Program-made: the position numbers and the translations under genes
The notes under the pieces: generated by a model
What the model saw: the letters and a program-made list of their open reading frames with translations, nothing else
What the model was told of the DNA's origin: nothing
Databases searched by the model: none
Shown here: positions 1,573-18,641 of the stretch, one piece after another
Layout of the letters: the number at the start of each line of letters is the position of its first letter
How positions within the stretch are numbered: the first letter of the stretch is position 1
Assembly (NCBI GenBank): GCA_945897475.1
Contig: CAMDFL010000001.1
Span: 4,842 to 68,841 of the forward strand
Length of the DNA: 64,000 nt
Origin: Bordetella parapertussis
Lineage (GTDB): Bacteria > Pseudomonadota > Gammaproteobacteria > Burkholderiales > SG8-39
Direction of reading: 5' to 3'

Positions 1573-3249
1573 ATGCTGATCAATGTACTCAAGCGCGTGC
1601 TTCGCTCGCTGATCGAACGCGGCAAACCACGCAGCGCTCCGGCCGTGCCAGCGGAGATTTTGACCGCAGAGCTGCCAGGCCTCCTCGATCAGGCGCGCTT
1701 TGCCCACCGTAACGGCAACTTGGATGAGGCCTTGCGCGCCTATGAATGCGCCTTAAAACTCATATCACCCGCGCAGACGCAAGCTCGCTCGGCCGTGGTG
1801 GTGAACATGGGGGTCATCCTGCGCGAGCAGGTTCGATTGCCGCAGGCTATCGCTTGTCTGCGCGAAGCCATAGTCATTTGTCCGCGAGTGGCCATCGCAC
1901 ATTACAACCTTGGTCTGATTTTGTACGAGATGGGCGAGTCCAGTGAAGCTGAGGTCGAGTTGAATGCCGCCATCGAAATCGCGCCGGATTTTCAGGCGGC
2001 CCACAGCACACTGCTTTGCCTGTATGGCCTCACCCGAAGTGAAAATCCCGAACGCGTTCTGGCGCAACACCGTCGTTGGGCCGAGAAATTCGCCGATCCG
2101 CTGACGTCGATGGCGCCCGCGCATGCCAATGACCGATCGATCGATCGACGGCTCACCGTGGGATATGTATCGGCGGACTTCAAGGAACATTCAGTGGCGC
2201 GTTTTATCAGTCCGATTCTCGCCAATCATGACCGTGCCCGGTTCCGCGTGATCTGTTATGACAACTGGGCTGATGGCGATGCGACTACCGAACGCCTGCG
2301 CGGCTACGCGGATACCTGGAGAAAGATCGATGCTCTCGATGACGAGAATGCCGCCCAACTGGTGCGTGACGATGGCGTCGATATTCTTGTGGATCTTTCC
2401 GGCCACACCACCGGCAATCGCCTGTTGATGTTCGCTCGCAAACCGGCTCCGGTACAGGCGAGCTGGATGGGTTACATGTGCACTACCGGCATGCTGGCCA
2501 TGGATTGGCGCATTACCGACGCGAATCTCGATCCACCAGATGCAAGCGATAGCTGGTACGCCGAGCGCCTGATGCGCATCGGCTGCGCGGTTGCGTTCGA
2601 GCCCCATCCCCACAGCCCGGCGGTCAATGAGTTGCCTGCGCTCCAAAAAGGATTCGTGAGGTTTGGGTCATTCAATAACTACACCAAGATTGGTGACCAG
2701 GTGATAAGTCTGTGGAGTCGCGTGCTCGCCGCGCTGCCGCAATCCAGATTGATGCTGGTATCCCTTGGCGGCGATGATCCGCAGATCAAGGCGGCGATCG
2801 CTGCGCGTTTCGAACGCCTGACTTCGACGCCAGGCGTATCAAACAGAGTCGAGGTCATTGGGCGTCGCTCACCTGAGGATTTTCTGCGCATGTTTCACCA
2901 GGTGGACATCGCCTTGGATCCATTCCCCTATAGCGGAGGGACCACCAGCCTGCATACACTATGGATGGGGGTGCCGATTGTTGCTATCGAGGGAAGTACG
3001 GAATTGTCCCGAAGCACCAGCGGCATGCTCAAGGGGTGTGGGCTTCACGATTTAGTCGCTTATGGCGAGGAGGAGTACTTGAGCATCTCGATCGCGTTGG
3101 CCGCCGATCTTGGCCGGCTTGCCGAGCTTCGCGCAACGATCAGGCAGCGTCTCGCGCAGACTGCGCTCGGTAATGGAGCGCTGGTAACGCGCGAGCTTGA
3201 AGACGCGTATCGCATGATGTGGGCAGATTTTGTGCGCAGTGCTGGGTGA
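1573..3249 (+). CDS. TPR-repeat / GT41 (SPINDLY-OGT-like) glycosyltransferase
   Basis: 558-aa ORF with ATG at 1573. The N-terminus carries TPR-like repeats (LDEALRAYECALKL..., HYNLGLILYEMGESSEAEVELNAAIEIAPDF). The C-terminal domain has VGYVSADFKEHSV, DILVDLSGHTTGNR, RFGSFNNYTKI and LDPFPYSGGTTSLHTLWMGVPIVA, as in bacterial OGT-like GT41 proteins. Confidence 0.8.
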   Translation: MLINVLKRVLRSLIERGKPRSAPAVPAEILTAELPGLLDQARFAHRNGNLDEALRAYECALKLISPAQTQARSAVVVNMGVILREQVRLPQAIACLREAIVICPRVAIAHYNLGLILYEMGESSEAEVELNAAIEIAPDFQAAHSTLLCLYGLTRSENPERVLAQHRRWAEKFADPLTSMAPAHANDRSIDRRLTVGYVSADFKEHSVARFISPILANHDRARFRVICYDNWADGDATTERLRGYADTWRKIDALDDENAAQLVRDDGVDILVDLSGHTTGNRLLMFARKPAPVQASWMGYMCTTGMLAMDWRITDANLDPPDASDSWYAERLMRIGCAVAFEPHPHSPAVNELPALQKGFVRFGSFNNYTKIGDQVISLWSRVLAALPQSRLMLVSLGGDDPQIKAAIAARFERLTSTPGVSNRVEVIGRRSPEDFLRMFHQVDIALDPFPYSGGTTSLHTLWMGVPIVAIEGSTELSRSTSGMLKGCGLHDLVAYGEEEYLSISIALAADLGRLAELRATIRQRLAQTALGNGALVTRELEDAYRMMWADFVRSAG

Positions 3250-3382
3250 CCGGCAGGTAAAACGAGATGGCTGAGTCGTGCGTAGAAAATGTTTGGCTTA
3301 AAGCCCTGCGGGCGCAAATGGCGCAGGCTAGAATGCTCGTGATTTAGGTTGCTTACGCGCGTATCAGGGAGAATTAAAAAGA

Positions 3383-3619
3383 ATGGCTGATCTCGAAAGC
3401 TTTATCGTCAATTTCACCAATGCGGTGGATTTTCAAGAGCAGGTTGAAATGCGCGGCGACACCGTTCTTGCCGAACTGCCCGAATGGGATTCGCTCGCCG
3501 CGCTCGGGGCGATCATCATGTTCGATACCGACTACGGCTTGACCATAACCGGTAATGACTTGAGAAACTGTGCGACGGTCCATGACCTGTTCGTTTTGAT
3601 TCAAACCAAGGCGAAGTAG
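3383..3619 (+). CDS. Acyl carrier protein (stand-alone, non-FAS type)
   Basis: 78-aa acidic ORF with GGGAG about 11 nt upstream of the ATG. 'EWDSLAAL' contains the DSL phosphopantetheine-attachment motif. Confidence 0.8.
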   Translation: MADLESFIVNFTNAVDFQEQVEMRGDTVLAELPEWDSLAALGAIIMFDTDYGLTITGNDLRNCATVHDLFVLIQTKAK

Positions 3620-3625
3620 GCTGCT

Positions 3626-4660
3626 ATGGCGTTATCGAGCATACAAAACGTCCGGTACCGCGGCGTGGTTTCGTGCGTGCCAAAATCCATCATTTCAAAT
3701 CTTGACTGCCCGCCCGAGAAAAGATCGGAGCGCGAGCGCCTGGTTCGCAATATAGGCATCGAGCAGCGCCGTATCTGCTACCCATGGCAATATTTCTCCG
3801 ATCTGGCGGTGGCCGCTGCGGAAAAGCTCCTCGGCGAGCTCAAGTGGGCGCGCGAGGAGGTCGATGCGCTTATCGTCGTAACCCAGTCCCCCGATTACCT
3901 CATCCCTGCCACCGCGATCATTATTCAGGACCGTCTCAAGTTAAAAACCTCGATTCCGGCCTTCGATATCAACCTGGGCTGCTCCGGGTATCCGTATGGC
4001 TTGTATGTGCTTGGGTCCATGATGTCCTCCGGCGCAATTAAAAAAGGCCTGGTGCTGATCGGCGATAAATGCGCGGTGCTGACCGAGCCGCTGTTTTCCG
4101 ACTGCGGTACGGCGACGGCGCTCGAATACGACCCGACTGCGCCACCGATGCACTTCGACCTCAACAGCGACGGCAGCGGCTACCGCGCCATCATTCTTCC
4201 GATCGGCGGGCATCGCGCGCCAACCGAAATCCATCACCTGATCCCGCTTTTGGACGAGAGCGGCGAGCGGCGTCGTGCCGCAGACCTGGTCCTGGATGGA
4301 GCAGCGGTGTTGAATTTCTCGATATCGCGGGTGCCGCCCGCGGTAAGAGAGGTGTGCGAGGCTACTGGCACGTCGCTCGCCGATATCGACTTTCTGGTGT
4401 TCCACCAGGCCAATCGCATGATCAACGAGACCATCCGCAAGAAGCTGGGCTTGACCCCGGACAAGGTGCCCTCCACTCTGGCGGACTTCGGCAACACCAG
4501 TTCGGCATCAATTCCGCTGACCATGACCACGCGCCTCCGCGAGCAACTTGGCGCCGAGCGCAAGCGCCTGCTGCTGTGCGGCTTCGGCATTGGGCTCTCA
4601 TGGGCCACCTGCATCCTGGAGACCGACCGCATCTGCATACCCGAATTACTGGAAATATGA
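3626..4660 (+). CDS. 3-oxoacyl-ACP synthase III (KAS III / FabH-like)
   Basis: 344 aa. The Cys-His-Asn triad contexts are present: 'INLGCSGYPYG', 'VFHQANRMI' and 'FGNTSSASIPL'. The gene starts 6 nt after the ACP stop. Confidence 0.9.
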   Translation: MALSSIQNVRYRGVVSCVPKSIISNLDCPPEKRSERERLVRNIGIEQRRICYPWQYFSDLAVAAAEKLLGELKWAREEVDALIVVTQSPDYLIPATAIIIQDRLKLKTSIPAFDINLGCSGYPYGLYVLGSMMSSGAIKKGLVLIGDKCAVLTEPLFSDCGTATALEYDPTAPPMHFDLNSDGSGYRAIILPIGGHRAPTEIHHLIPLLDESGERRRAADLVLDGAAVLNFSISRVPPAVREVCEATGTSLADIDFLVFHQANRMINETIRKKLGLTPDKVPSTLADFGNTSSASIPLTMTTRLREQLGAERKRLLLCGFGIGLSWATCILETDRICIPELLEI

Positions 4661-5412
4661 ACACGGATCCATTCAGCCTCGAAGGCAAGCGCATTTTGGT
4701 AACCGGCGCCTCATCGGGGATTGGAAGGCAGGTGGCGGTCTCATGCGCGGCGATGGGAGCGACGCTGGTCATTACGGGGCGAAATGAAGCACGCCTTCAA
4801 GAGACTTTTCTGCAACTGGAAGGCGCCGGGCATACGACCGTAACGGCCGATTTATGCGCGGCTGAAGAGCGCGCCCGCCTAGCCGACGCCGCGCTCGCCA
4901 TCAATGGCGTCGCGCATTGCGCCGGCATCACCGCGATCGTTCCTTTCAGGATGATTGCCGAGAAGCACATGAATGAAATGTTCGACACCAATTTTCGCGC
5001 GCCGATTCTGCTGACGCAGCGTCTGGTGGCAAAAAAGCAAGTGTTACCCGGCGGTTCCATCGTATTCATCGCAGCGACCGCCGCGCTGATAGGGCCGACC
5101 GCGACCGGCATGTATGCCGCGAGCAAGGCGGCGCTGATCTCCGCCGCCCGCGTGCTTGCGCTCGAATTGGGCGCGAAGCAGAAAATCAGGGTGAATTGCG
5201 TCGCACCCGGCTATACGCGTACCCCGATGCTGGAAGGCTTTGACAGCCAGGGGACGTCTATGCAGGCCAACTATGCGCTTGCGCCGCTGGGACTTGGGGA
5301 GCCTGCCGATGTCGCCAACGCAGTTGTTTTTTTTCTGTCGGACGCGAGCCGCTGGATTACCCGGGCCACCTTCGCGGTTGACGGCGGCCTGACTTCCCGA
5401 GTCAGCTGTTGA
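4657..5412 (+). CDS. Short-chain dehydrogenase/reductase (FabG-like)
   Basis: An in-frame ATG at 4657 overlaps the KAS III stop (ATGA). Motifs are 'ILVTGASSGIGRQV' (TGxxxGxG) and 'MYAASKAAL' (YxxxK). The longer 4069 ORF start lies out of frame inside KAS III and is rejected. Confidence 0.85.
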   Translation: MNTDPFSLEGKRILVTGASSGIGRQVAVSCAAMGATLVITGRNEARLQETFLQLEGAGHTTVTADLCAAEERARLADAALAINGVAHCAGITAIVPFRMIAEKHMNEMFDTNFRAPILLTQRLVAKKQVLPGGSIVFIAATAALIGPTATGMYAASKAALISAARVLALELGAKQKIRVNCVAPGYTRTPMLEGFDSQGTSMQANYALAPLGLGEPADVANAVVFFLSDASRWITRATFAVDGGLTSRVSC

Positions 5413-5419
5413 GGGGAGC

Positions 5420-6169
5420 ATGAATAGCAAGCACCCTTTTAGGCTGGACGGCAAAACCATTCTCGTCAGCGGCGCTTCGTCGGGACTCGGTCGCCAAACC
5501 GCGATCAGTTGCTCGCACATGGGCGCCAAACTTTTTATCACCGGGCGGGACAGCGAACGCCTCGCGGTGACCCTAGCCGAGTTGAGCGGGGATGGGCACC
5601 GCGTGGCAGTCGCCGATCTGACCTTGGCAGACGATATCAACCGCCTGGTCGATGAGTGCGGCAAGATAGACGGCGTATTTCACGGCGCCGGGGTGAGGGG
5701 CCTTGCGCCGATAAAACAGATCTCCGAAAAGTTCGTACAACACGTTTTCGCCAGCAATTACTTCGCGCCGATGCTGCTCACACAGCGATTGCTTTCCAAG
5801 AGATCCATTCAGCAAGGCGGGTCCATCGTATTCATGTCGTCCACCGCAGCGCACCTCGGCGTACACGGCGTCGGCGTGTATTCGGGCACCAAAGCTGCGC
5901 TGCTGGCCAGCATGCGCTGCCTGGCGAATGAACAAGGTAGAAATAATATACGTGCGAACTGCCTTTCCCCCGATCTGGTTGAGACGCCCATGGTTGTCAC
6001 CATCGACACTGTGGATACCAAGGAATGGATTGAAATGCAGCGTAATCGCCACCCCTTGGGCCTGGGCGCGCCCGAAGATGTTGCCAATGCCGCCATTTAT
6101 CTGTTGTCAGACGCGAGCCGCTGGGTTACCGGGACAACTCTCATCATGGATGGCGGGGTCACTTTTTAA
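5420..6169 (+). CDS. Short-chain dehydrogenase/reductase (FabG-like, paralogue of the previous gene)
   Basis: 249 aa with 'ILVSGASSGLGRQT' and 'VYSGTKAAL'. It is clearly similar along its length to the 4657-5412 product. Confidence 0.9.
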   Translation: MNSKHPFRLDGKTILVSGASSGLGRQTAISCSHMGAKLFITGRDSERLAVTLAELSGDGHRVAVADLTLADDINRLVDECGKIDGVFHGAGVRGLAPIKQISEKFVQHVFASNYFAPMLLTQRLLSKRSIQQGGSIVFMSSTAAHLGVHGVGVYSGTKAALLASMRCLANEQGRNNIRANCLSPDLVETPMVVTIDTVDTKEWIEMQRNRHPLGLGAPEDVANAAIYLLSDASRWVTGTTLIMDGGVTF

Positions 6170-6180
6170 CGGAGCAGCAA

Positions 6181-6816
6181 ATGGAAAATCTGATCATTGT
6201 CGGCGCAGGCGGTATGGGACGGACCATTTATGCGCAATGTAAAAGCGATGACGCCATAGGACGGGAGTGGCTGGTCAAGGGTTTTCTGGATGATCGATCA
6301 AAAATTCTCGCCGGTTATGGAACCCACGTGGGAATTATCGGCGACCCGCAGACTTATGTGCCCCTGTCAGATGACAGATTTGTCGTCGCGCTGGGAGATC
6401 CCAAGGAAAGAGAACGCTACGCGGCGCCTTTATTGGAGAAGAACGCCAACTGCATCAATCTGCTTACGGAATACACGCGCGGCGACAATGTGGTGCTGGG
6501 CAAAGGCAATATATTCGAGCGCAAGGTCTATTTGTCATCGGATATTCGTATCGATGACTTCGTCATCATCTGCGCTCTCACGATTGTCGGGCATGATGTG
6601 CATATTGGGTCTTACGCCCATATTGGCAGTTTCGTGATGATAGGCGGATGGGTCGATATCGGCCCTGGCGTGACCATCCATCCGCATTCCACCGTCCTGC
6701 CGAAAGTAAAAATCGGCGCGGGCGCCACGGTGGGCGCGGGAAGCGTGGTGATGCGCGACGTGCCACCCGGGGTTACGGTGCTTGGCAATCCCGCGAAAAT
6801 TTTCGAGTTCAAGTAA
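6181..6816 (+). CDS. NeuD/PglD-type sugar N-acyltransferase (left-handed beta-helix, hexapeptide repeats)
   Basis: 211 aa. The N-terminus 'MENLIIVGAGGMGRTIY' is a PglD_N-like Rossmann-ish domain. The C-terminus has hexapeptide repeats (IGSYAHIGSFVMIGGWVDIGPGVTIHP...IGAGATVGAGSVV) and ends 'GNPAKIF'. Confidence 0.85.
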   Translation: MENLIIVGAGGMGRTIYAQCKSDDAIGREWLVKGFLDDRSKILAGYGTHVGIIGDPQTYVPLSDDRFVVALGDPKERERYAAPLLEKNANCINLLTEYTRGDNVVLGKGNIFERKVYLSSDIRIDDFVIICALTIVGHDVHIGSYAHIGSFVMIGGWVDIGPGVTIHPHSTVLPKVKIGAGATVGAGSVVMRDVPPGVTVLGNPAKIFEFK

Positions 6817-6841
6817 GGCAGGCAAGCGCCTCATCGTTCGC

Positions 6842-7960
6842 ATGTTATCCCCCTTGACCCAGCGTGACTATTTCTCGGAAGAGGTTCTCGCCCTAGAGAA
6901 CGAGCGCTTGTTCGGGCGCCTGTGGATATTCGCGGCCCTCAGACAACTGCTGGTGCAACCCAACTCATTCGCAACCCGCACCATAGGCGGTGTGCCGCTG
7001 GTGCTGCAGAATTGCGGTGGCGTTATCAAGGCCTTCGAGAATCAATGTTTGCACCGGCAAATGCCGTTGCAATGGGAGGACTACGGCAAGCGGCCACTGG
7101 TGTGCCGTTACCACGGCTGGAGCTACGACGGAGATGGCGCGCCGAAACATATTCCCGATCGGGAACAGCTCTACCGCTATCCCGAACAGGAGACAGCGGG
7201 CTTGCGTCTTCGCCAATTCGCAGTCGAATCTGTGGGCGAGCTGGTATTTGTCAACCTCGGTAAAAATCCGCCACCCATCGCCGAGCAATTCAGCGAGACC
7301 CTTATTGACAGGCTTGCCGCGGCATCCGCAGCTTTCGACGACGAGGTCATGCATACCCGCATTGCCGCGAATTACAACTGGAAGCTTAATTTCGAGAACG
7401 TGTTGGACGGCAACCATGTCCGTTACTTGCATCCGGCCACCTTCACGCCCTATCTGCAGGCCGCGTCAGAGGCGCGCCAGGGCAATTGGGCCGAGACGCC
7501 GGCGGCAATGGCGCCGGATATTGATAACTGCCGCCTGCAGGACTTGAGCTATGAATCGAAGTCCGGCTTCAAGGTGGTGAAGCGCTTCTGGCATCGCGAC
7601 GTGGCCCGCTTTGGTGGCGACGGTGTTTTTTACACCTTCTCCATTTATCCCAATGTAAATTTCATTTCCGTCGGCGGCTACTATTTTCTTATTCAACAAT
7701 TCAATCCGGTGGCGCCGGGGAAAACCGAAGTCAGCTTATCGCTGATGACGGCCAGGAAACTTCGCCGTATCCCCGCCTCAGCGGCAATATTGTGGGGCAC
7801 CATGCGCGGTGAGAAAGCGGTTCTCGACGAGGACATACGCGCGCTGGAAAAACTCCAGGCAGGCCTGCATGGCGACGGTCGCCCGGCGCGCCATGGCGAT
7901 TATGAGAAACAGCTGATGATGAACCACGTTATTTATCGCAAACTGCTGGCCGCGCCGTGA
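6842..7960 (+). CDS. Rieske [2Fe-2S] non-heme-iron oxygenase, alpha-subunit type (copy 1)
   Basis: Start chosen at ATG 6842 (MLSPLTQRDYF...) by alignment with the paralogue at 8624. The Rieske motif is 'CLHRQ-x14-CRYHGW' (CxH-x16-CxxH). The mononuclear-iron motif is 'ENVLDGNHVRYLH' (Dx2Hx4H). Confidence 0.85.
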   Translation: MLSPLTQRDYFSEEVLALENERLFGRLWIFAALRQLLVQPNSFATRTIGGVPLVLQNCGGVIKAFENQCLHRQMPLQWEDYGKRPLVCRYHGWSYDGDGAPKHIPDREQLYRYPEQETAGLRLRQFAVESVGELVFVNLGKNPPPIAEQFSETLIDRLAAASAAFDDEVMHTRIAANYNWKLNFENVLDGNHVRYLHPATFTPYLQAASEARQGNWAETPAAMAPDIDNCRLQDLSYESKSGFKVVKRFWHRDVARFGGDGVFYTFSIYPNVNFISVGGYYFLIQQFNPVAPGKTEVSLSLMTARKLRRIPASAAILWGTMRGEKAVLDEDIRALEKLQAGLHGDGRPARHGDYEKQLMMNHVIYRKLLAAP

Positions 7961-8580
7961 GTAAAGGGCTGCTGATTATTGGCGCAGGCGACCTGTTCCG
8001 GGGTGTTGCTTTGCAGTTTGTGCGGCAGCAACCGAATCGTAAAATAGAAATACTGGAATTGAAATGGGACGAAGCAGAGGAGCTTCAAAGCGGATTGCTG
8101 GATCTTTATCCCCCCGCTGATTGGGATCTGTTTGCGGCGACTGGAATGGGCGGCATGAATTTCGTCCGTCTCGGCCTTTTCTCGCAGGCAAAGCAGCGAG
8201 GGTTCAAGTGTGAAACATTCATTCACCCAAGCGCGGTGGTCGATCCCAATGCGACGGTCGGGCAAAATTGCTATGTCGGCGAAAACGTCGTGATTGAAGC
8301 CGCCGCACGGATCGACTTTAACGCCGTCATCGGGGCGCGCAGCGTCATCGCATACGGCGCCAAGGTCGGGTCATCTGCCTGGATCGGGGCCAATTGCTTT
8401 CTCGGCGCCGCTTCAAGTGTCGGTTCGCATTGCGTCATCGACGTCGGTGTGATGATCGCGGCGGGCGTGAAGGTCGGGAAATTCTGCAATTTGCAGATTG
8501 CCAGGAACTACTCTGTAGATGTCCCGGATAAGACCTTCCATCACGAAATGTTCGATCAGCCAGTGAGAATCTATGCTTGA
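7957..8580 (+). CDS. Divergent NeuD-like hexapeptide-repeat protein (copy 2)
   Basis: 207 aa. The GTG start overlaps the Rieske stop (GTGA). The N-terminus is 'GLLIIGAGDLF'. The C-terminus has LbH repeats (VGQNCYVGENVVIEAAARIDFNAVIGARSVIAYGAKVGSSAWIGANCFLG...). The GNPAK C-terminal motif of copy 1 is absent and the protein ends 'PVRIYA'. Confidence 0.7.
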   Translation: MSKGLLIIGAGDLFRGVALQFVRQQPNRKIEILELKWDEAEELQSGLLDLYPPADWDLFAATGMGGMNFVRLGLFSQAKQRGFKCETFIHPSAVVDPNATVGQNCYVGENVVIEAAARIDFNAVIGARSVIAYGAKVGSSAWIGANCFLGAASSVGSHCVIDVGVMIAAGVKVGKFCNLQIARNYSVDVPDKTFHHEMFDQPVRIYA

Positions 8581-8623
8581 ACATTTCCTGCGCCAGAACC
8601 GCGCCCGGTAGCGGCCCTTCGAT

Positions 8624-9778
8624 ATGCTTTCTCGAATGAAGCCGGAGTTTTACCTGTCGGATGAAATATTTCGCCGGGAGCAGGAAAGCCTGTTCAAGCG
8701 CTTGTGGATCTTCTATGGCTTGAAGACGATGCTGGCCGAACACAATGCGTTTATTGCCCGAAACATCGGCGGCATTCCGGTTGTGGTGCAGAACTTCGAC
8801 GGTGAACTGAGGGCATTCGAAAATATTTGTGTCCATAGACAGAACGCACTTCAGTGGGAAGAATCTGGGAAAAGACCCTTGGTCTGCCGCTATCACGGCT
8901 GGGGTTATGACGCGGATGGATGGGCGCGCAATATTCCGGCGCATGACGAAATCTACCGCTATGCTGAAGAGGAGCGCGCAGGCCTGCGCTTGCGGCGATT
9001 TTCTCTTGAGGTTATCGGCAATCTGGTCTTTGTCAATCTATCGCCTGATCCCTTGCCGCTGACAGAACAATTTACCGGCGAGTTCATCGAGTCTCTCCGC
9101 GACAGTTCCAACGCTTACGATGGCGAGGTGTTGATCGCAAAGCTCAAAACCCGCTTCAACTGGAAACTGGCGTATGAAAATCTGCGCGACGGCAACCACC
9201 CGCGCCATGTGCATGCGCAGACGCTCGCCAAGGATGTCAACTTTCAGGCCTTTGTCGACGAAGCCCAGCATCGCCGGGCCGAGCAGGTCTGCGCTGGCTC
9301 CATGGCCGGCGACCGGGCACAACAAATGGATTTGTTGCGCAGTTTCAGCGTCGGCGGACCCGATACGGCATTAAAGGAGCTCAAGCCCTACGAATGGCAT
9401 GGGGCGGTCGAGCGCTTCGGCAGCCTCGACTACTATTACAACTGGCTGGCTTATCCCAATTTGCATATAGCTTCCGGGTCTGGAGGGTATTCATTTACCT
9501 TGGAGCAGCACAATCCGGTGGCGCCTGGCGTAACCGAATTGACCGTTTATTGGTTGACTGCCAAGAAAAAGCGCCCGTATCCCGCCATGCCGGCGGTGTT
9601 GCTTGCGTCGATCGAGGTCGGCTATCAGGTGTTGGAGGAGGATATTAAAGTCATGGAGATGGTCCAAAAGAATTTGCACGCCGAAGCGCCGCTGCCGCGC
9701 CAGGGCGATTACGAGCATGCCAACAAGTTGCTTGAGAAGTGGTATGCCGATCTGATGGATGGCCAATTTGAAATCTAA
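8624..9778 (+). CDS. Rieske [2Fe-2S] non-heme-iron oxygenase, alpha-subunit type (copy 2)
   Basis: 384 aa with 'CVHRQ-x14-CRYHGW' and 'ENLRDGNHPRHVH'. By eye it is roughly half identical to the 6842-7960 product over the whole length. Confidence 0.9.
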   Translation: MLSRMKPEFYLSDEIFRREQESLFKRLWIFYGLKTMLAEHNAFIARNIGGIPVVVQNFDGELRAFENICVHRQNALQWEESGKRPLVCRYHGWGYDADGWARNIPAHDEIYRYAEEERAGLRLRRFSLEVIGNLVFVNLSPDPLPLTEQFTGEFIESLRDSSNAYDGEVLIAKLKTRFNWKLAYENLRDGNHPRHVHAQTLAKDVNFQAFVDEAQHRRAEQVCAGSMAGDRAQQMDLLRSFSVGGPDTALKELKPYEWHGAVERFGSLDYYYNWLAYPNLHIASGSGGYSFTLEQHNPVAPGVTELTVYWLTAKKKRPYPAMPAVLLASIEVGYQVLEEDIKVMEMVQKNLHAEAPLPRQGDYEHANKLLEKWYADLMDGQFEI

Positions 9779-10388
9779 GCTTGTAGTCGGCGCCGGCGAC
9801 TTCCTTGAGATTGCTTTTCATGCCTGGAAGGAAAAAGATCCCGCCATTGCCGTTGAAAAACTGGAAATCACGCAGGACGAAAACCACAGCTTCGACCTCG
9901 GTTTTCTCGACGGCTACTTGCCGGAGGAAACCTCGATGTTCGCGGCATTCGACAATCGCTTTCTAAACTTCAAGCGGCTTGAATTGATGGGCGCTATAAA
10001 ATCCAGGGGTTTCTGCATGGATGCGTTTATAGGTGGCGGGGCAATTGTCGGCGCCGGTGTGAAAATTGGTGAAAATTCTTTCGTTTCGGAAGGCGCGGTG
10101 ATTGGCGCGGCGGCAATCCTCCAGTACAACATCTACCTCGGTGCTCGCGCCGTAGTTGGATACGCCGCGCAGATCGGGCACTCAGCCTGGATCGAAGCCG
10201 CAGTCGTGCTCGGCAGGCGAGCGCGAATCGGCGCCCACACCACGCTTGGCCTCGGCGTGTCAGTTGCGGATAACATTCAAGTTGGGCGCATGTGCCTGAT
10301 TGAGGATCCAGGGCAGTATTGTGAAAACATTCCTGCGAAAACGTTCTGCAAGCCGTCCTTCGAGGGGCCGATTCGAATTTTCAACTGA
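9759..10388 (+). CDS. Divergent NeuD-like hexapeptide-repeat protein (copy 3)
   Basis: 209 aa. ATG 9759 overlaps the end of the preceding Rieske gene by 20 nt. It has 'KLVVGAGDFL' followed by LbH repeats (IGGGAIVGAGVKIGENSFVSEGAVIGAAA...). It ends 'PIRIFN', like copy 2. Confidence 0.7.
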   Translation: MANLKSKLVVGAGDFLEIAFHAWKEKDPAIAVEKLEITQDENHSFDLGFLDGYLPEETSMFAAFDNRFLNFKRLELMGAIKSRGFCMDAFIGGGAIVGAGVKIGENSFVSEGAVIGAAAILQYNIYLGARAVVGYAAQIGHSAWIEAAVVLGRRARIGAHTTLGLGVSVADNIQVGRMCLIEDPGQYCENIPAKTFCKPSFEGPIRIFN

Positions 10389-10653
10389 CTCGGCGGCACG
10401 CTGGATCACCGCAGCATTGTGCCGCGATCAGCATTCAGTCGATATCGCCATAGAGCACGGTATCGTAGTCGCAGCATGAATGCTGGCGCAGGCGGAACCG
10501 GCAGCGTGGATTTATCTTCAGGATGTGTTGTTCGTCACTTCGAGCAGGTCGTGCGCGTAGTGATATACGGTAAGGGCCACGCGCGGTGAGTATTGGCTTA
10601 GCAGGCGCTGCCCTTCGCTGTGGGGTTTGGCGAAAATGTCTCCCAACTAAAGT

Positions 10654-11847
10654 CTAATTAATCGCTTCAGCAAGGGCCGAACAGACTCGACGGATGCTCT
10701 CTTGAGTGAGCTCAAGGTGGAACGGCAGGCCCAGCATTCGCGGCCCCAGGGATCTAGCCACCGGCAAATCGAATGCCTCTATCCCGGCATAGGCCGGGTG
10801 ATCAGGCAGCAGAGGCAAATACCAGGCTCGGGTCTCGATACCTTGTGCGGTGAGAGCGCTTACTAGCGCATCGCGACTGACCCCGGGCTGCAGCAGCAAC
10901 TGAAAAATTGTGTAGGCGCCATCCAGCGGGCGTGCCTGCAGGGTGATCTCGGGGGAGTTGCGCAACAGTTCGTCGCAATAAGCTTGGTTCAGTGCCTCAC
11001 GCAGCCGGCGGCGTTCGGGCCAGCGCGTCAGCGCGGCGAGTCCAACGGCCGCATGCAATTCACTCAATTTGGCGTTGCCGCCCACATCCGGCGCGTGACC
11101 GTTGGACGGGTCTATGCCGAAATTGGAAAGTCGCCGCACCCGCTCGATGAATGCCGCGTCGCGCGACACCACCAATCCACCTTCGCCAATTCCCAGAGCC
11201 TTGGTCGCGTGCATGCTGAATGCAAGCACAATACGCTCGCCCGGCTGCTGATTGCCAAACGCGCCCGCCGCGTCCACTAGAACCGGAATGCCTGAGCGCT
11301 CGGAAAAATCGTCCCACTCGGCGGCGGGCAGAGGACATCCCAACGCGGCGACAGGCAGGACACAGTCGATTTTTGTTGTTGTCATTGCCGCGCGAGCAAT
11401 CGCCGGTGTCAACACCCAGCTGTGCGCGTCAATATCGGCGATGATGGGCCGCAGTCCGGCACGAAGAACCGCGGCAGCTGTCGCGACAAAGGTGAACGCC
11501 GGAATCAGCACATGGGCGCGTGGTGGCAGTCGTAACGCGGCAAGAGCGAGCTCCAACGCCATAGTGCCGTTGGCAACCGTGCTTAGAAAAGGGGCTGGCG
11601 CCGGGAACAGGGATTGCACACTGTGTTCAAAGCGCCGTACTAAAGGGCCGAAATTCGTATACCAGCGCGCGTTGTCTATCTCAGCTAGGAATGGTTCCAA
11701 ATCGGCGCGTCGCGGCAAATCGGGAACGAGAAGCGGAATTCTTGGGTGATTCAATTCAAATGCCGCCGCGGCCGAACGATAGCGTCTGGATAGAGCTTGG
11801 CGGGGATTTTCATAGGTAATTCTCCCGCGAATCGTAATACCAATCAA
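10654..11847 (-). CDS. DegT/DnrJ/EryC1/StrS-family PLP aminotransferase
   Basis: 397-aa ORF. 'FSMHATKALGIGEGG' is the family's PLP-lysine motif (SxHxxKxxxxGEGG), and 'IPLLVPDLP' lies near the N-terminus. The only in-frame start I see is TTG at 11847, so the start is uncertain. Confidence 0.85.
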   Translation of the reverse strand: MIGITIRGRITYENPRQALSRRYRSAAAAFELNHPRIPLLVPDLPRRADLEPFLAEIDNARWYTNFGPLVRRFEHSVQSLFPAPAPFLSTVANGTMALELALAALRLPPRAHVLIPAFTFVATAAAVLRAGLRPIIADIDAHSWVLTPAIARAAMTTTKIDCVLPVAALGCPLPAAEWDDFSERSGIPVLVDAAGAFGNQQPGERIVLAFSMHATKALGIGEGGLVVSRDAAFIERVRRLSNFGIDPSNGHAPDVGGNAKLSELHAAVGLAALTRWPERRRLREALNQAYCDELLRNSPEITLQARPLDGAYTIFQLLLQPGVSRDALVSALTAQGIETRAWYLPLLPDHPAYAGIEAFDLPVARSLGPRMLGLPFHLELTQESIRRVCSALAEAIN

Positions 11848-11963
11848 CGGCTAATGTTCTTCGGATAATTTCCTCCAACTCCGACACCTTGGTGATTTTG
11901 CCGCACATCAGCGATGTCGTCTCATCGCCAAGGACAGGCAAGCGGCAAAGATTCCTGAATTCC

Positions 11964-13481
11964 CTAGGCATGTGCCAATTTTCCAAAGGCCTCGTCAAGC
12001 GCGCGCCTTGTGTCATTCAAGCGCTGGCGCCGATTGTCTAGCCATGCGCGATCATTATCCAATTGGTCGAGTTGCCTGGCCAGCATTCGTTTGACTTCCG
12101 CAGGCTGCGGCCCTCCCATGCCTCGACTCGATCGCACCATGTTATCCGCCGATAAGGCCTCGCGAAATCGAGCTTCGCTCAAGGGCAATCGAGATTCGGC
12201 ATCGGGCCCCGAGCCATTTACGTCGGAATAAATGCGAACCGCTTCCGCATAGGGAATTTGCGCAGGCTTCAAGCCGTGTCCGCGACCATAGTTCACCAGT
12301 TCCGAGGCGAAATGGTGCCCGGCGCGAAACGCTACGCCGGCATCGCGCTGCAGGATGTCGGCCAGTTCGGTGGTGGTCGAGTAATCGGCATCGATTTCGG
12401 CACGCGCGCGTTCCACATTGAGCGTCAATGAGCGTACCGCGGCATCGATCATGTCGAAAAATTTGGCCACCGATTGCAGCGCGATCAAGGCTTCATTGCC
12501 GCGGTGTTCGAGTAATCCGGAGCCTATGTTGTGCGCGACGAATAAACACGCCTGTGCCTCGCCAAGAACCTTGCTTGCCAAGTGCCGCGCCGCCACCAGC
12601 ACGATCGGATTGCGTTTCTGCGGCATGATGGTACTGGGGCCAGTGAGCCCACCTTCCCGCAGGACGATCCATGGCGAGGTCTGCCGATACTGTGCCAGGA
12701 TGTCGTTGATGAGCGCATCCCCGGTGAGGGCGCCCGATGCGGCGATGCCGGCAAGCTCGACGCTCATGTCGCAGGGTGCGACGTGGTTTGCATCGAGAGA
12801 ATTCTCCACCACGCCATCGAAACCCAGCAGTTCGGCGAGGCGCGGACGGTCTATGGCGAAGCTTGATGTGCCCAGGGCCCCGGCCCCCAATGGCGAAAGA
12901 TTCACCCTTGCCCACGCCTCGCGCATGCGTGCCGCGGTGCGCTCCAAGGCCGCGGCAAACGCCAGAAGATAGTGGCCGAAGGTGGTGGGCTGCGCTTGCA
13001 CGTTGTGGGTATATGCGGGAACTAGATCGTTTTGATGACGCTGCGCAAGCGCAAGCATTCCCGCCCGAATCCGTGCAAGGCTGTCGTAGGTGTCGAGAAA
13101 CTGGTCGCGAATGAACAGGCGATGAGTAGTCGCCAGCATGTCCTGGCGGCTACGTCCCGAATGCACGCGTGTCACTTCTGCGCCGCCTGCTTCGACCAAG
13201 AGCCGCTCAATGATCATGTAATTGCCGGGACGCTCGGCGCCAGGCGCGGCGCCCGCCTCAAGGACCTGTGTCACCGCATTGGCGATGATTTTTGCAAGTG
13301 GTGCTCTGATCACACCTTGCTCGGCGAGCATCACCGCCGAAGCCTTGTTCATCTCCCCCATCCAGTGGAAGGCATCGTGCCCATCCGAGGAGGTAGTAAT
13401 GGGTCTAATTTCCTCGCCCATCAGATAGAATTCGCTGCCCTGCGTTGCCTGGCCCATGGAGATTTGCCGACTTTCCATCAT
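11964..13481 (-). CDS. Argininosuccinate-lyase-like fumarate-lyase superfamily protein (paralogue, not the canonical argH)
   Basis: 505 aa with 'GRSRQDMLAT', 'AYTHNVQAQPTTFGHY' and 'GPSTIMPQKRNP', the fumarase/ASL signature regions. The start may be one of several downstream ATGs, because only 46 nt separate 13481 from the divergent gene at 13528. Confidence 0.8.
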   Translation of the reverse strand: MMESRQISMGQATQGSEFYLMGEEIRPITTSSDGHDAFHWMGEMNKASAVMLAEQGVIRAPLAKIIANAVTQVLEAGAAPGAERPGNYMIIERLLVEAGGAEVTRVHSGRSRQDMLATTHRLFIRDQFLDTYDSLARIRAGMLALAQRHQNDLVPAYTHNVQAQPTTFGHYLLAFAAALERTAARMREAWARVNLSPLGAGALGTSSFAIDRPRLAELLGFDGVVENSLDANHVAPCDMSVELAGIAASGALTGDALINDILAQYRQTSPWIVLREGGLTGPSTIMPQKRNPIVLVAARHLASKVLGEAQACLFVAHNIGSGLLEHRGNEALIALQSVAKFFDMIDAAVRSLTLNVERARAEIDADYSTTTELADILQRDAGVAFRAGHHFASELVNYGRGHGLKPAQIPYAEAVRIYSDVNGSGPDAESRLPLSEARFREALSADNMVRSSRGMGGPQPAEVKRMLARQLDQLDNDRAWLDNRRQRLNDTRRALDEAFGKLAHA

Positions 13482-13527
13482 TTCATTTCGGTGATAATAA
13501 TTGCTGAATCACGGGATTCGGATAAAC

Positions 13528-14490
13528 ATGAAAATTATTTCCTTGCTTATATTCGCATTGATTGGGCTGGCGGCGCCGATGTCATCGACATTGGCCCAGT
13601 CGTACCCGGTCAAACCCATACGCTTGATGGTCCCCTTTGGATCGGGTAGCGGCTCGGATATCGCGGCGCGTTTTTTCGGCGATCAGCTCTCAGGCGTCAT
13701 CGGAGCGCCCTTTATCATCGAGAATCGCCCCGGCGCTAATGGCGTTATCGGCGTGATGGCGGCAAAGACCGCGCCCGCCGACGGCTATACACTATTGCTT
13801 GGGAGTTGGACCACTATCTCGGTTAATCCCATTGCAGTCAAAGACCTTGCCTACGACCCGGTGCAGGATTTCAAACCGATATCGGGCCTCACGCGCAGCA
13901 TGATCGGCATCGCGGTGCCGGGTGGTTCCGCCATCAAGTCTGTGGCCGATCTGGTGTCAATGGCCAAGGCCGGCAAACCGATCAACATCGGCACCTATTC
14001 CACCGGGTTTCACATCGTTCTGGAGTCGTTTAACGCGGCGGCGGGAATCAAGCTTGTCAACGTGCCTTATAAGGCTGCCGGCCAAGCGCATACCGATGTC
14101 ATGGGTAGTCAGATCGACGCATTAATGGATGGCACGACTTCGCTTGGCCCCATGTTGCGCTCCGCGAAACTGCGCCTGCTGGCCGCATCGGGTGAGCGGC
14201 GCGATGCGGCGTTTGCCGATGTGCCGACCTTCCGCGAAAGCGGCTACCCCGATTTTGTCGCCTGGGGGTGGTCGTCGTTTTTTGTTCGCACCGAGACGCC
14301 CGAGGAGGCCACGCATAAACTCGCCGATGCGATGCAAAAGGTACTGGCATTGAGCGCGACACAGGAATTCGCGAAGAAAAGTGGCTCCGAACTGATGCTG
14401 TTCGGACCGGCGGCTATGCGAAAATTCCAGTTAGATGAAATCGGCAAATTCCGCCGCGTCGCCGCCGCGGCAGGCATCAGGCCCGAATAG
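13528..14490 (+). CDS. Bug-family (TctC-like) tripartite tricarboxylate transporter substrate-binding protein
   Basis: Start chosen at ATG 13528 (MKIISLLIFALIGLAAPMSSTLA, a signal peptide), followed by 'QSYPVKPIRLMVPFGSGSGSD', the typical Bug N-terminal motif. Confidence 0.85.
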   Translation: MKIISLLIFALIGLAAPMSSTLAQSYPVKPIRLMVPFGSGSGSDIAARFFGDQLSGVIGAPFIIENRPGANGVIGVMAAKTAPADGYTLLLGSWTTISVNPIAVKDLAYDPVQDFKPISGLTRSMIGIAVPGGSAIKSVADLVSMAKAGKPINIGTYSTGFHIVLESFNAAAGIKLVNVPYKAAGQAHTDVMGSQIDALMDGTTSLGPMLRSAKLRLLAASGERRDAAFADVPTFRESGYPDFVAWGWSSFFVRTETPEEATHKLADAMQKVLALSATQEFAKKSGSELMLFGPAAMRKFQLDEIGKFRRVAAAAGIRPE

Positions 14491-14497
14491 GAAAAAC

Positions 14498-15697
14498 ATG
14501 TCCCAATCTCTACCTTTGCATCCGGTGTTCGATGACCCGAATATTCAAGCCATTCTGGCCCAGGAGTACGGGCGTATGTCCGATGCCGAATTTGTTCGCC
14601 GTAAGCTCGCTCTAGGCCTTGTCCTTGCCGAGCATGGCTGCGATACGGTACTTCTATGCGGTGAACAGCGGGTCGGCAGCGGCGTGCATTGGATCACCGG
14701 ATGGGCGACCACCACCGAGGCAATGGTTCTGCATATGCCTGGCGAACAGGATCTCATGTGGGTCGAGCACTACAACCACCTGCCTAACGCGCGCCGCATG
14801 GCGATTGGCGTCGATGTTCGTTGGGCCGAGCGCAAGGGCCCGGCACGCGCCATTGATGAATTGAAGAAACGCGGCGCAAGGCGCGTGGGTTTCATCGGCA
14901 ATCTTTCCTGGTCAAAAATGCGCGCCCTGGCCGATGCTTTCGATCTGGTGGATCTGAACGGCGACTACGCATGGCTGCGAATGCGTAAATCGGAGGAGGA
15001 AATCCAATGGATGCGAATCGGCGCCGCGTTGTCCGATCTGGGTATGGAGGCTCTGGCCAATGGTGCGCGGCCCGGAATGAGCGAGAGGGAGCTGGGCGCC
15101 ATGGTGGAGGCGGCCTATCAGCCGCTGGGGGGCGCCACCACCATTCATTTCATCGGCATCAACGACATGGCCAGTCCCACGCAATGCGTTCCGCCGCAAT
15201 ATCATTCCACCAGAACGCTGAAACGTGGCGACATGATGTTTGTTGAATTTACCGCGGCGTTCTGGGATGCCTCGGGACAGGTGCTGCGAAGTTTTACCGT
15301 GGATGCCGAACCCACGCCGCTGTTTCGCGATCTGTATGCCACGGCCGAAGCCGCGTTCAAGGCGATCACCGGGGTGTTGCGCGCAGGCGTATCGGCGCAG
15401 GAAATCGTCGATGCCTCATCGCTTATCGAGAAGGCGGGTTTCTCTACCTACGACGACATCCTGCACGGCTTTGGCGGAGGCTATTGGGCGCCGGTGCTCG
15501 GCTCAAACAGCCGGCCGTCTGGCCCGGTTCCGGATATGAGGCTGGAGGCGAATATGACCGTGGTGGTTCAGCCCAACGTGATCACCACCGATGAAAAGGC
15601 GGGCGTTCAATTTGGTGAGATGGTGCGCATCACCCCGGAGGGGTTCGAGCGCATGCACCATGCGCCTTCGGGGTTTCGGCGGATCGGCGCCTGGTAA
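14498..15697 (+). CDS. M24-family (creatinase/prolidase 'pita-bread' fold) protein with non-canonical metal site
   Basis: Start chosen at ATG 14498, preceded by AGGAAAAAC. It has a creatinase-like N-domain and a C-domain. The positions that align with the canonical ligand motifs read 'GDMMFVEFTAAFWDASGQ', 'HGFGGGYW', 'VVVQPN' and 'GEMVRIT'. Compare pepP at 43125. Confidence 0.75.
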   Translation: MSQSLPLHPVFDDPNIQAILAQEYGRMSDAEFVRRKLALGLVLAEHGCDTVLLCGEQRVGSGVHWITGWATTTEAMVLHMPGEQDLMWVEHYNHLPNARRMAIGVDVRWAERKGPARAIDELKKRGARRVGFIGNLSWSKMRALADAFDLVDLNGDYAWLRMRKSEEEIQWMRIGAALSDLGMEALANGARPGMSERELGAMVEAAYQPLGGATTIHFIGINDMASPTQCVPPQYHSTRTLKRGDMMFVEFTAAFWDASGQVLRSFTVDAEPTPLFRDLYATAEAAFKAITGVLRAGVSAQEIVDASSLIEKAGFSTYDDILHGFGGGYWAPVLGSNSRPSGPVPDMRLEANMTVVVQPNVITTDEKAGVQFGEMVRITPEGFERMHHAPSGFRRIGAW

Positions 15698-15730
15698 GCC
15701 AGGCGAATCTGCAGCAATGCCTCCTGGATT

Positions 15731-16225
15731 TTAGGAGGTGACCGCGTGTGCATCGGCGAGCGTGAATCGGTCGCCAAAATCAAACATGTCGTCGTGCTGG
15801 AAGCCCTCGAAGTGCTGCACCTCCCACCAATTGTGGTCGAGATCCTCGATATAGAACGAATACACGCCGTGCTGATCGACCACATCGAGCACATTCCTGA
15901 TCTTGTATTTGTCTTTCAATTCGAGCGCCATCTTGTGCACGCGCTCGACTTCGTCGCGACTCTCCACATCGACGCCCCAGTGGTTGAAGACGCCACAGGG
16001 TTTGAGACTCTTGCCGACCTGAACGCACACAATATGGAATTTCATGCCGCAACGCACCGCCATGGTTCGCCGCGCATGCTGCACGCACTGCATGCCGAGA
16101 AACTCCTCGTAGAAGCGCCGCGACTCGCCCAGGTCGTAGCACTCCATGGTGCCGTGCGAAAGCACATAGGGCTTGACCACGGAGGTCATATTTTCGGGTT
16201 TGAACGCGGCGTCGAGAATTTCCAT
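15731..16225 (-). CDS. VOC (glyoxalase/bleomycin-resistance/extradiol-dioxygenase) family protein
   Basis: 164 aa with AGGA 8 nt upstream of the ATG. 'HGTMECYDLGESRRFYEEFLGM' and 'NHWGVDV...YSFYIEDLDHNWWEV' give the paired beta-alpha-beta-beta-beta module pattern. Confidence 0.75.
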   Translation of the reverse strand: MEILDAAFKPENMTSVVKPYVLSHGTMECYDLGESRRFYEEFLGMQCVQHARRTMAVRCGMKFHIVCVQVGKSLKPCGVFNHWGVDVESRDEVERVHKMALELKDKYKIRNVLDVVDQHGVYSFYIEDLDHNWWEVQHFEGFQHDDMFDFGDRFTLADAHAVTS

Positions 16226-16373
16226 GATGTTTTCCTTGGGGCGGTGTTACGGATGGGTGTAGGGATTCGGGCCCGGTCCTGGGGCCCGGAATCGACAGGC
16301 GATATTCTGCCGCATTTGGCGAAGTCATGGCCTGCGCTGGCGTACCATATGAAAATATTGGGTCTTTAGCAAA

Positions 16374-16676: not shown

Positions 16677-16773
16677 GGCGGGATGGGGGCGCTTTTGATT
16701 GACTCCCGTCGACGGGGGGGCAAAGATACCCGGATCTATAGGCGCGGAATGCCGCGGGGAATCCGGCGCGGCC

Positions 16774-17613: not shown

Positions 17614-17626
17614 TGCTAGTCCATGT

Positions 17627-18499: not shown

Positions 18500-18593
18500 G
18501 GCAATCCTCGCGAGGAAGGGATGCTGTAAATTATCACAGAGCAGAGCGCCGCGGCGCCCCAGGTCAATACATATCAGCATTTCATATCGAGCA

Positions 18594-18641
18594 TCGACTT
18601 TGACTGGCACCGACTTCGACTGTCGACTTCGACTTCGACTT
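18594..18641. repeat. Imperfect (CGACTT)n hexanucleotide microsatellite
   Basis: tcgactttgactggcaccgacttcgactgtcgacttcgacttcgactt, in the divergent intergenic region between the cupin gene (start 18499) and the Bug gene (start 18705). Confidence 0.8.

Follow-up and report, generated by a model that had tools for sequence, protein, structure and literature searches.

Tandem Rieske oxygenase and left-handed β-helix gene pairs as a candidate tailoring cassette in a viosamine-island-type protein glycosylation cluster

The window analyzed here is a 64,000-nucleotide (64-kb) stretch of contig CAMDFL010000001.1 (GenBank assembly GCA_945897475.1, positions 4,842 to 68,841 of the forward strand), from a genome named Bordetella parapertussis that GTDB places in the Burkholderiales (SG8-39). 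It contains, twice in tandem, a two-gene module in which the gene for a Rieske oxygenase is followed by the gene for a protein with a left-handed β-helix (LbH); we refer to the second protein as the LbH partner and to each pair as a cassette. An earlier note on this DNA had delimited the two pairs and proposed that each acts as an obligate functional unit. The present study suggests that the pair is indeed a unit, which recurs in Betaproteobacteria and Xanthomonas, and that it may tailor the sugar made by a glycosylation cluster related to the viosamine island of Pseudomonas syringae. The four genes of the two cassettes are as follows.

6842..7960, + strand: Rieske1, Rieske non-heme-iron oxygenase, alpha-type subunit, type 1; 372 amino acids (aa), PF00355 and PF00848
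7957..8580, + strand: LbH1, LbH partner 1; 207 aa, GTG start, PglD fold, Tyr133 at the catalytic-His position
8624..9778, + strand: Rieske2, Rieske oxygenase, type 2; 384 aa, member of the type-2 clade (20 sequences)
9759..10388, + strand: LbH2, LbH partner 2; 209 aa, Tyr135 at the catalytic-His position

The open reading frames (ORFs) lie where the earlier note had placed them, and their products are paralogous: in pairwise alignments Rieske1 and Rieske2 share 44% identity end to end (364 aa, E 1e-107), and LbH1 and LbH2 share 36% (204 aa, E 3e-44). Either LbH partner matches the third LbH protein of the window, a canonical copy encoded at 6181-6816, at about 24% identity over 91 aa only (E 3e-4). 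Both Rieske proteins carry PF00355 (6e-15 and 1e-13) and PF00848 (8e-15 and 6e-14), and the two motifs that had been recognized in them, CxH-x16-CxxH and Dx2Hx4H, are present as C69xH71-x16-C88xxH91 and D189xxH192xxxxH197 in Rieske1, with equivalents in Rieske2. Pfam finds Hexapep in all three LbH proteins and PglD_N in the 6181 copy only, and this copy passes the TIGR03570 (NeuD/PglB/VioB) cutoff of 160.8 bits with 161.9, whereas LbH1 (79.4) and LbH2 (61.9) fail it. The motifs divide the three proteins in the same way, just as had been read from the sequence: LbH1 and LbH2 share 'GAGD' and a C-terminal 'P(V/I)RI(Y/F)', in contrast to the 'GAGGMG' and 'GNPAKIF' of the 6181 copy. At the first junction the CCG-TGA stop of Rieske1 shares GTGA (7957-7960) with the GTG start of LbH1; at the second, LbH2 overlaps Rieske2 by 20 nt when read from ATG 9759, and an alternative TTG at 9768 would make this overlap 11 nt, as in most relatives. 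A scan of window positions 3200-12000 for promoters and terminators returned nothing above shuffled expectation.

The arrangement recurs outside the source genome. A protein search with Rieske1 recovered a compact family, 30-77% identical to it, that spans Burkholderiales, Methylophilaceae and one metagenome-assembled genome (MAG) of Azoarcus; its members all carry database names of the generic 'ring-hydroxylating dioxygenase' type. A motif scan of genome contigs gave 4 close and 5 intermediate loci among the matches listed, the other ~70 being unrelated Rieske oxygenases, and in every close locus examined the Rieske gene was followed immediately by an LbH gene of the partner family. Both cassettes are present in a Methylophilaceae MAG, in the complete genome of Xylophilus rhododendri, where they directly adjoin fliC-fliC-fliD-fliS-fliT, and in a syntenic metagenome relative of the window, where an FkbM-type methyltransferase gene accompanies them. 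Single cassettes occur in Collimonas humicola (adjoining type IV pilin genes), in the Azoarcus MAG (36% identity) and in a Burkholderiales MAG, Massilia, X. cucurbitae and X. translucens. In the reverse direction, an LbH-only motif run against metagenome contigs recovered 17 loci, all 17 with a Rieske gene immediately upstream; no LbH of the partner family without an upstream Rieske was recovered, save contig-edge fragments and one frameshifted locus (L084). The pair sample comprises 38 Rieske–LbH pairs from about 28 loci, among them near-duplicates (L081-83, L091-93) that make the effective sample smaller than the raw counts. Start codons at its junctions were picked heuristically, and ORFs of high-GC loci were taken from candidate lists with a filter on GC content at third codon positions (GC3). 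The Rieske stop and LbH start overlap at 38 of 38 junctions, by 4 nt in type 1 and mostly by 11 nt in type 2. Elsewhere in the same operons overlaps were counted at 4 of 20 PglD-to-Rieske, 4 of 19 SDR-to-PglD, 5 of 18 SDR-to-SDR, 11 of 16 FabH-to-SDR and 6 of 11 LbH-to-Rieske junctions. Because it recurs in about 28 independent loci, the arrangement seen in the window lies far beyond chance.

The two proteins have also diverged together. Rieske distances track LbH distances across 35 full-length pairs (matrix correlation r = 0.94), and the correlation falls to 0.42 when partners are swapped within double-cassette genomes; 2000 random permutations reached at most 0.32. In the Rieske tree, a type-2 clade (n = 20; Rieske2 of the window, Xanthomonas, Massilia and others) has all of its partners in one LbH cluster, and ten partners of the type-1 clade (n = 12; Rieske1 of the window, Collimonas, Xylophilus and others) form another. 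This correspondence between Rieske clades and LbH clusters indicates that the cassette was duplicated as a whole pair, giving types 1 and 2. A given genome has either type alone or the two together, and when both are present the order is always type 1, then type 2. The exceptions within type 1 are LbH1 of the window (7957-8580) and that of its closest relative (L081, 11110-11733), which cluster with type-2 LbHs; this placement could reflect gene conversion, substitution of an LbH2 copy for LbH1, or an artifact of clustering at low identity.

In X. translucens pv. cerealis and in the metagenome contig L105, the Rieske–LbH pair stands alone as an intact dicistron, with no other gene of the glycosylation island described below within 8-10 kb. 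Collectively, constant adjacency and order, the overlaps, co-divergence, co-duplication and joint retention outside the island support the view that Rieske and LbH partner are one evolutionary and functional unit, which is what the earlier note had proposed from the two pairs of the window. A physical Rieske–LbH complex is plausible. Around the lone dicistrons, the neighboring genes are an arginyl-tRNA-protein transferase (ATE) gene upstream and a Band-7/DUF3887-hydrolase region downstream, with PurT immediately upstream in L105. In the X. translucens locus (L002; strain CFBP 2541, NZ_CP074364.1, about 1.18-1.20 Mb), about 2.7 kb upstream of the pair (locus positions 7146-9887) holds no convincing ORF and possibly consists of decayed island remnants.

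Two candidate natural fusions of the pair were rejected. One (P0078, 593 aa; L084 5646-7427, from the single Logan contig SRR23683175_178790) results from a 1-nt frameshift some 15 codons ahead of the usual Rieske stop; reading in +1 recovers '...AEAYLDLLGTGSA' and its stop, with the usual ATGA overlap. The frameshift, which happens to join the two overlapping genes in frame, reflects an assembly error or else a very recent mutation. The other (P0090, 513 aa) is an out-of-frame read-through.

Rieske proteins without an LbH partner delimit the pairing. Sister Rieskes with 25-31% identity (L005-L009), in a member of the Caulobacteraceae, Azospirillum doebereinerae, Flavobacterium sp. CF136, Polaromonas and Niveispirillum fermenti, lie near FabH and SDR genes and have no LbH partner; FabH, Rieske and SDR genes are contiguous in L005, L007 and L008 and 2-7 kb apart in L006 and L009, and a PglD gene sometimes follows. 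In addition, one locus (L089) carries a Rieske–LbH pair together with a solo Rieske, P0111. Judged by this gene content, the wider Rieske clade is tied to a short-acyl module (ACP/FabH/SDR, ACP being acyl carrier protein), and having an LbH partner characterizes a subclade and is not required by the Rieske fold, given that partnerless relatives and the solo P0111 exist. The partnered Rieskes have an insert at approximately residues 205-235 of Rieske1 (208-222 disordered in the model), which the five FabH-Rieske-SDR solo relatives lack and P0111 has too. At the bridging position, the partnered proteins have Asp and the five solo relatives Glu. The association of Rieske proteins with short-acyl sugar decoration in L005-L009 is a second one, also uncharacterized, and spans several phyla.

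The Rieske of the cassette is, by prediction, a catalytically intact member of an uncurated subfamily that looks alpha-only, since its metal ligands are conserved and its structural model is confident. In a 30-sequence family alignment, C69, H71, C88, H91, H192, H197, D331 and an NWKxxxEN motif are invariant and D189 is present in at least 90%, so that the motifs of the two window proteins are near-invariant in the family. The AlphaFold2 model of Rieske1 has a predicted local distance difference test (pLDDT) score of 90 and a predicted template modeling (pTM) score of 0.90, and the nearest solved structures are stachydrine demethylase Stc2, CntA, TM1040_3219 and TPADO, at ~20% identity. Against all NCBIfam equivalogs the two Rieskes score 50-85 bits, with cutoffs of 600-830: the HcaE, BenA and AndAc aromatic dioxygenase equivalogs give 57-72 bits (cutoffs 672-830) and the GbcA equivalog 75.1 and 85.2 bits (cutoff 670), all short by an order of magnitude. 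The best structural and profile matches are thus α3 Rieske monooxygenases of similar length (Stc2, 3VCA/4QUR; CntA, 6Y8J; GbcA), with which the window proteins share the conserved cluster, 2-His-1-carboxylate site and bridging Asp and the lack of a nearby β-subunit gene; none was found in the window or in related clusters. Unlike CntA and GbcA, they have no adjacent CntB/GbcB-like reductase, and their setting is glycan biosynthesis, not quaternary-amine catabolism. Only one candidate redox partner was seen near any of these Rieske genes: in Xylophilus (L087, CP047650.1, 14778-17329) the island is extended by genes for a 424-aa protein with a weak WavE-like match and an amine-oxidase/NAD_binding_8 flavoprotein, the latter being that candidate. 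An analogy is offered by CMP-N-acetylneuraminic acid hydroxylase (CMAH), a Rieske protein whose reaction is hydroxylation of the N-acyl group on a sugar activated by a nucleotide. It is an analogy only, however, as the catalytic domain of CMAH is not homologous (no PF00848) and the enzyme is eukaryotic, b5-dependent and without an LbH partner.

The LbH partner is predicted to have a two-domain fold, an N-terminal α/β domain followed by a left-handed β-helix (LbH2 model, pLDDT 93.5, pTM 0.89). Foldseek places LbH2 closest to PerB, PglB-ATD, PglD and VioB (probability 1.0, template modeling score, TM, up to 0.78, 16-21% identity). The fold is thus that of the PglD/PerB/PglB-ATD/VioB class (PDB 3BSY, 4EA7, 4M99, 7TXP), from which the partner differs in having 'GAGD' for the GxGGxG-like loop, 'P(V/I)RI(Y/F)' for 'GNPAK', and constant coupling of its gene to that of a Rieske protein. 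When 1.84 billion representatives were searched with a profile, 126 matches came back at E <= 1e-30, ~94 of them full-length and ~200-230 aa long, and the family amounts to about 90-125 clusters at 50% identity. Residues were compared by alignment with Campylobacter jejuni PglD (His125/Glu126, N58/R61/G72) and with the canonical copies. The earlier note had asked whether the catalytic His is kept. The 6181 copy has it, within the aligned stretch 'IVGHDVHIG', whereas LbH1 and LbH2 have Tyr, X. translucens has His, Collimonas Ala and the Azoarcus MAG Glu, and across a 129-member alignment the position is variable (A33/Y13/S13/H11/P9/N7/R7/F5). The Glu126 position is mostly Gly or Ala in the same alignment. 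In the N-domain, by contrast, an Arg (R71/R73) never varies and an Asn (N68/N70) is kept in 95% of members; 76% of members also share a Trp (W142/W144). The N-domain residues align with N58/R61/G72 of PglD, the Asn and Arg, which may contact the nucleotide-sugar, corresponding to N58 and R61. By these measures LbH1 and LbH2 are not ordinary PglD-type acetyltransferases. Loss of the His is not proof of inactivity, because one canonical VioB-like copy, that of Collimonas, also has Tyr at this position.

An LpxA/LpxD-like acyl-ACP transferase was considered for the LbH partner, LpxD being the best PDB sequence match of LbH1, and was rejected: the likeness does not extend beyond the hexapeptide coils, and PglD/PerB come out ahead in the fold search. 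LbH1 and LbH2 score 65.5 and 46.5 bits against LpxD (cutoff 242.5) and 34 and 26 against LpxA (cutoff 231), they end about 30 residues past the LbH, and the structural TM to LpxD is below 0.3. Databases call the partner 'hypothetical protein' or misname it LpxD, and scans of Pfam and NCBIfam revealed no family-specific model for either protein of the cassette.

The remaining genes of the cluster in the window are the following.

1573..3249, + strand: TPR and GT41-family glycosyltransferase, of the flagellin-glycosylating protein O-glycosyltransferase type; Pfam Glyco_transf_41 (2.9e-46) and TPR repeats
3383..3619, + strand: putative acyl carrier protein, 78 aa; 'WDSL' phosphopantetheine-site-like motif, conserved acp position
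3626..4660, + strand: FabH-like beta-ketoacyl-ACP synthase III (VioS-like); Pfam ACP_syn_III and ACP_syn_III_C, NCBIfam PRK09352 (6.8e-62)
4657..5412, + strand: SDR/FabG-like reductase 1, 251 aa; Pfam adh_short_C2 (residues 213-442 of the long ORF), ATGA overlap with FabH
5420..6169, + strand: SDR/FabG-like reductase 2 (VioR-like); Pfam adh_short_C2 (7e-49)
6181..6816, + strand: canonical NeuD/PglD/VioB-type sugar N-acyltransferase; TIGR03570 (161.9 bits) and PglD_N
10654..11847, - strand: DegT/DnrJ/EryC1-family sugar aminotransferase (VioA-like), convergent with the operon; Pfam 1.9e-66, NCBIfam DesI/PseC-like, below cutoffs

The first SDR gene almost certainly starts at ATG 4657, the 447-aa ORF originally listed (4069-5412, overlapping FabH by ~590 nt) being an over-extension, because this ATG gives an ATGA overlap with the FabH stop and a 251-aa product that matches the genes of relatives. 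The 78-aa ORF, too short for the original ORF list with its 80-aa threshold, has no Pfam PP-binding match at E <= 0.01 and is putatively a very divergent ACP: an ORF of 74-78 aa precedes FabH in every related locus, and the equivalent genes are acp in P. syringae (PMC3927599) and XCV2012, annotated 'acyl carrier protein', in Xanthomonas (PMC3826837). A homolog of the GT41-TPR gene is found in nearly all related clusters.

This gene set resembles a characterized system that the earlier note, although correct on the genes themselves, had missed. In P. syringae pv. tabaci 6605, the viosamine island (vioA, acp, vioS, vioR, vioB, vioM, vioT) was shown by knock-outs and mass spectrometry to make dTDP-N-(3-hydroxy-1-oxobutyl)-(2-O-methyl)viosamine for flagellin, and it has homologs in orfA-orfE from P. 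aeruginosa PAK's flagellin glycosylation island (PMC3927599). Homologs of vioA, acp, vioS, vioR and vioB lie together in the window cluster, the homology being at family level only; the likeness covers the DegT aminotransferase, the small ACP, the FabH-type KASIII, the FabG-type SDR and the NeuD/PglD/VioB LbH, together with a methyltransferase in the relatives of the window. However, the viosamine island as described has no Rieske oxygenase and a single LbH protein (PMC3927599), and the window cluster differs further in having the GT41-TPR protein instead of the 1,173-aa VioT, two SDRs and no methyltransferase. The Acidovorax K1 island was rejected as a match, as its gene set differs.

Linkage to flagellar genes is present in Xylophilus and Xanthomonas. 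In X. cucurbitae, genes for PilZ, a LuxR-type regulator, RpoN, a response regulator and FleQ are followed directly downstream by the island, in the order aminotransferase-ACP-FabH-SDR-SDR-PglD-Rieske-LbH-methyltransferase. This order is that of XCV2017 to XCV2005 in a published table of the flagellar cluster, with XCV2005-2013 as the island part (PMC3826837). In Xanthomonas euvesicatoria 85-10, the same table lists XCV2007 as 'Rieske 2Fe-2S family protein' and XCV2006, which gene order suggests is the LbH partner, as 'hypothetical protein', both without comment and present in most of the xanthomonads compared (PMC3826837). In the locus of Collimonas humicola (L085, JAGQEF010000009.1, 3690-16472), the cluster has a Wzy_C/O-antigen-ligase-like gene at one end and, at the other, FimB and two type IV pilin genes, and here the glycan may decorate pilin rather than flagellin. 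By tblastn, no flagellin, pilin or FkbM-type methyltransferase was found in the 64-kb window.

In the closest syntenic relatives and in most double-cassette loci, an FkbM-type (Methyltransf_21) methyltransferase of 390-445 aa is encoded directly after LbH2 (L081 13557-14891, L087 13582-14757, L088 13585-14814); the window has only 265 bp at this site (10389-10653), and its lineage appears to have lost the gene. The cluster is flanked in the window by Sel1, lyase and TctC genes. Downstream of it, positions 13501-22775 encode two TctC (Bug-type) receptors, an M24 peptidase, an OMP-decarboxylase-family protein, a ChrR-cupin protein, an FAD aromatic-ring hydroxylase and a fumarylacetoacetate-hydrolase-family protein, a gene content typical of Burkholderiales catabolism and unrelated to the cassette.

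The explanation that we favor, and to which we give about an even chance, is that the cassette combines a Rieske hydroxylase with an LbH protein acting as a noncanonical acyl-transfer or substrate-binding partner and tailors a nucleoside diphosphate (NDP)-N-acyl-amino-sugar, which would be hydroxylated and then capped. The core genes, by their homology to the vio genes of P. syringae, would make and transfer an NDP-4-amino-4,6-dideoxyhexose that is N-acylated with a short 3-hydroxyacyl group. The Rieske, as an alpha-only non-heme-iron monooxygenase receiving electrons from a reductase encoded elsewhere, would hydroxylate a C-H (or N-H) bond of the N-acyl-amino-sugar nucleotide or of an ACP-bound acyl precursor. 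The LbH partner would be made in fixed proportion to it through translational coupling, as a PglD-fold trimer that has kept the N-domain Asn and Arg and lost the general base of PglD, and would act on the same molecule, most probably as a base-independent acyltransferase that caps the newly made function. Two cassettes would then add two successive oxidation/acylation decorations. Hydroxylation followed by capping is favored because the number of LbH proteins equals one VioB-like copy plus one per Rieske, solo Rieskes having no extra LbH. In this explanation, the region of the window is the variable, tailoring end of a protein (putatively flagellin) glycosylation cluster of the viosamine-island type, with the cassette as an accessory to the core.

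Several points weigh against this explanation. Within the LbH core, no His, Asp or Glu is conserved among the 129 family members. Known LbH enzymes normally depend on a His base for O-acyl transfer, which weakens the proposed acylation of a new hydroxyl. No reductase or ferredoxin gene was found in the window cluster or in related clusters, and the electron-transfer partner may be encoded elsewhere. The window has no flagellin or pilin gene, and the neighbors in Collimonas are pilin genes, so that flagellin is a putative protein target here. The near-duplicate loci reduce the weight of the counts. What the analysis shows is the pairing of the genes, their coupling and co-evolution, the context, the folds and the catalytic residues kept or lost, whereas the substrate, the reaction and the sequence of events are inferred. 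Finally, a pair that encodes a single enzyme of two subunits would account more naturally for the coupling, for co-divergence specific to each partner and for the unconstrained catalytic site. According to this second model, which we consider possible but distinctly the less probable, a catalytically dead LbH C3 trimer docks on the Rieske α3 trimer, like the β3 stalk of an α3β3 oxygenase, to form an obligate hetero-oligomeric NDP-sugar hydroxylase in which the LbH protein supplies the nucleotide-sugar binding site or the specificity. Both the Rieske fold and the PglD fold are trimeric in solved relatives. The stop/start overlap is universal, with lengths specific to each type, across sequences down to 25% identity; co-divergence is lost on partner swapping; and the pair stays together apart from the island. 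The positions of the PglD catalytic His and Glu are unconstrained, with the N-domain Arg and Asn kept, and the partnered Rieskes have the extra segment absent from the five FabH-Rieske-SDR relatives that lack a partner. Against this model, the sole fusion, P0078, is a frameshift artifact or a recent mutation. Enzymes that act one after another on a single substrate would also be expected to show overlaps and co-divergence, P0111 and distant Rieske relatives work without a partner, and the conserved N-domain residues are found in PglD as well and may be structural. In addition, base-free LbH N-acyltransferases of the QdtC/WlbB class exist, so that loss of the His is again no proof of inactivity. 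The full claim of an obligate α3-LbH3 complex, in which the dead acetyltransferase trimer would be a β-subunit-like component of a new two-subunit class of Rieske hydroxylases for NDP-N-acyl amino-sugars and the two paralogous complexes would work in series, is unlikely as we judge it, though deserving of consideration.

Two further explanations separate the proteins from one another or from glycosylation. That they are independent enzymes sharing an operon, the LbHs being ordinary sugar acyl- or acetyltransferases and the Rieskes acting on a different intermediate, would fit the tight packing that is general in these operons (for example, the FabH-to-SDR overlap in 11 of 16), the full PglD-like fold and hexapeptide repeats that LbH1 and LbH2 keep, and the Tyr of the canonical Collimonas copy, which suggests that loss of the His may be tolerated. 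Yet the overlap in 38 of 38 pairs and the adjacency in 17 of 17 loci are far tighter than any other junction, the pair has been duplicated and moved as a unit, and no partner-family LbH lacks an upstream Rieske except for contig-edge fragments and L084, so that independence is improbable. It is very improbable indeed that the Rieskes are catabolic aromatic-ring-hydroxylating dioxygenases unrelated to glycosylation. Their database names ('phenylpropionate dioxygenase-like', 'aromatic ring-hydroxylating oxygenase subunit alpha'), the presence of HcaE, AndAc and BenA among their best NCBIfam and PDB sequence matches and the aromatic-catabolism-like genes further downstream in the window all point in this direction; but the matches reach 50-85 bits with cutoffs of 600-830, no β subunit, ferredoxin, reductase or dihydrodiol dehydrogenase is encoded adjacently, and the context is invariably one of sugar and acyl biosynthesis and flagellar genes.

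The earlier note knew of no precedent for a Rieske–LbH pair. As to function this stands, in that our literature search found no functional work on the cassette, a provisional result because subscription papers were thinly covered; as to existence it does not, since the pair had already been annotated as XCV2007/XCV2006 (PMC3826837). Flagellin glycosylation islands that include tailoring enzymes are a known kind of system, and it is the Rieske–LbH cassette that is a new, widespread variant. Its hosts include Burkholderiales, Methylophilaceae, the Azoarcus MAG and Xanthomonas, in the last case including the flagellar cluster of Xcv 85-10, a model pathogen. The glycans on flagellin protect it from being recognized by host and plant immunity, and this protection is decided by their terminal, modified amino-sugars (PMC8364246). 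Thus, the cassette represents a widespread and uncharacterized source of glycan modifications, and it predicts an oxidized, possibly doubly acylated sugar of the viosamine type that has not yet been described. Tractable carriers exist in Xanthomonas, with its genetics, and in Xylophilus rhododendri, which is cultured and has a complete genome. The LbH partner provides a test case of a PglD-fold protein without the catalytic His, either a base-free transferase or a pseudoenzyme recruited as a subunit. If the proposed function is correct, Rieske oxygenases would join the enzymology of bacterial nucleotide-sugar tailoring; if the two proteins form a complex, bacterial protein-glycan biosynthesis would gain its first Rieske enzyme.

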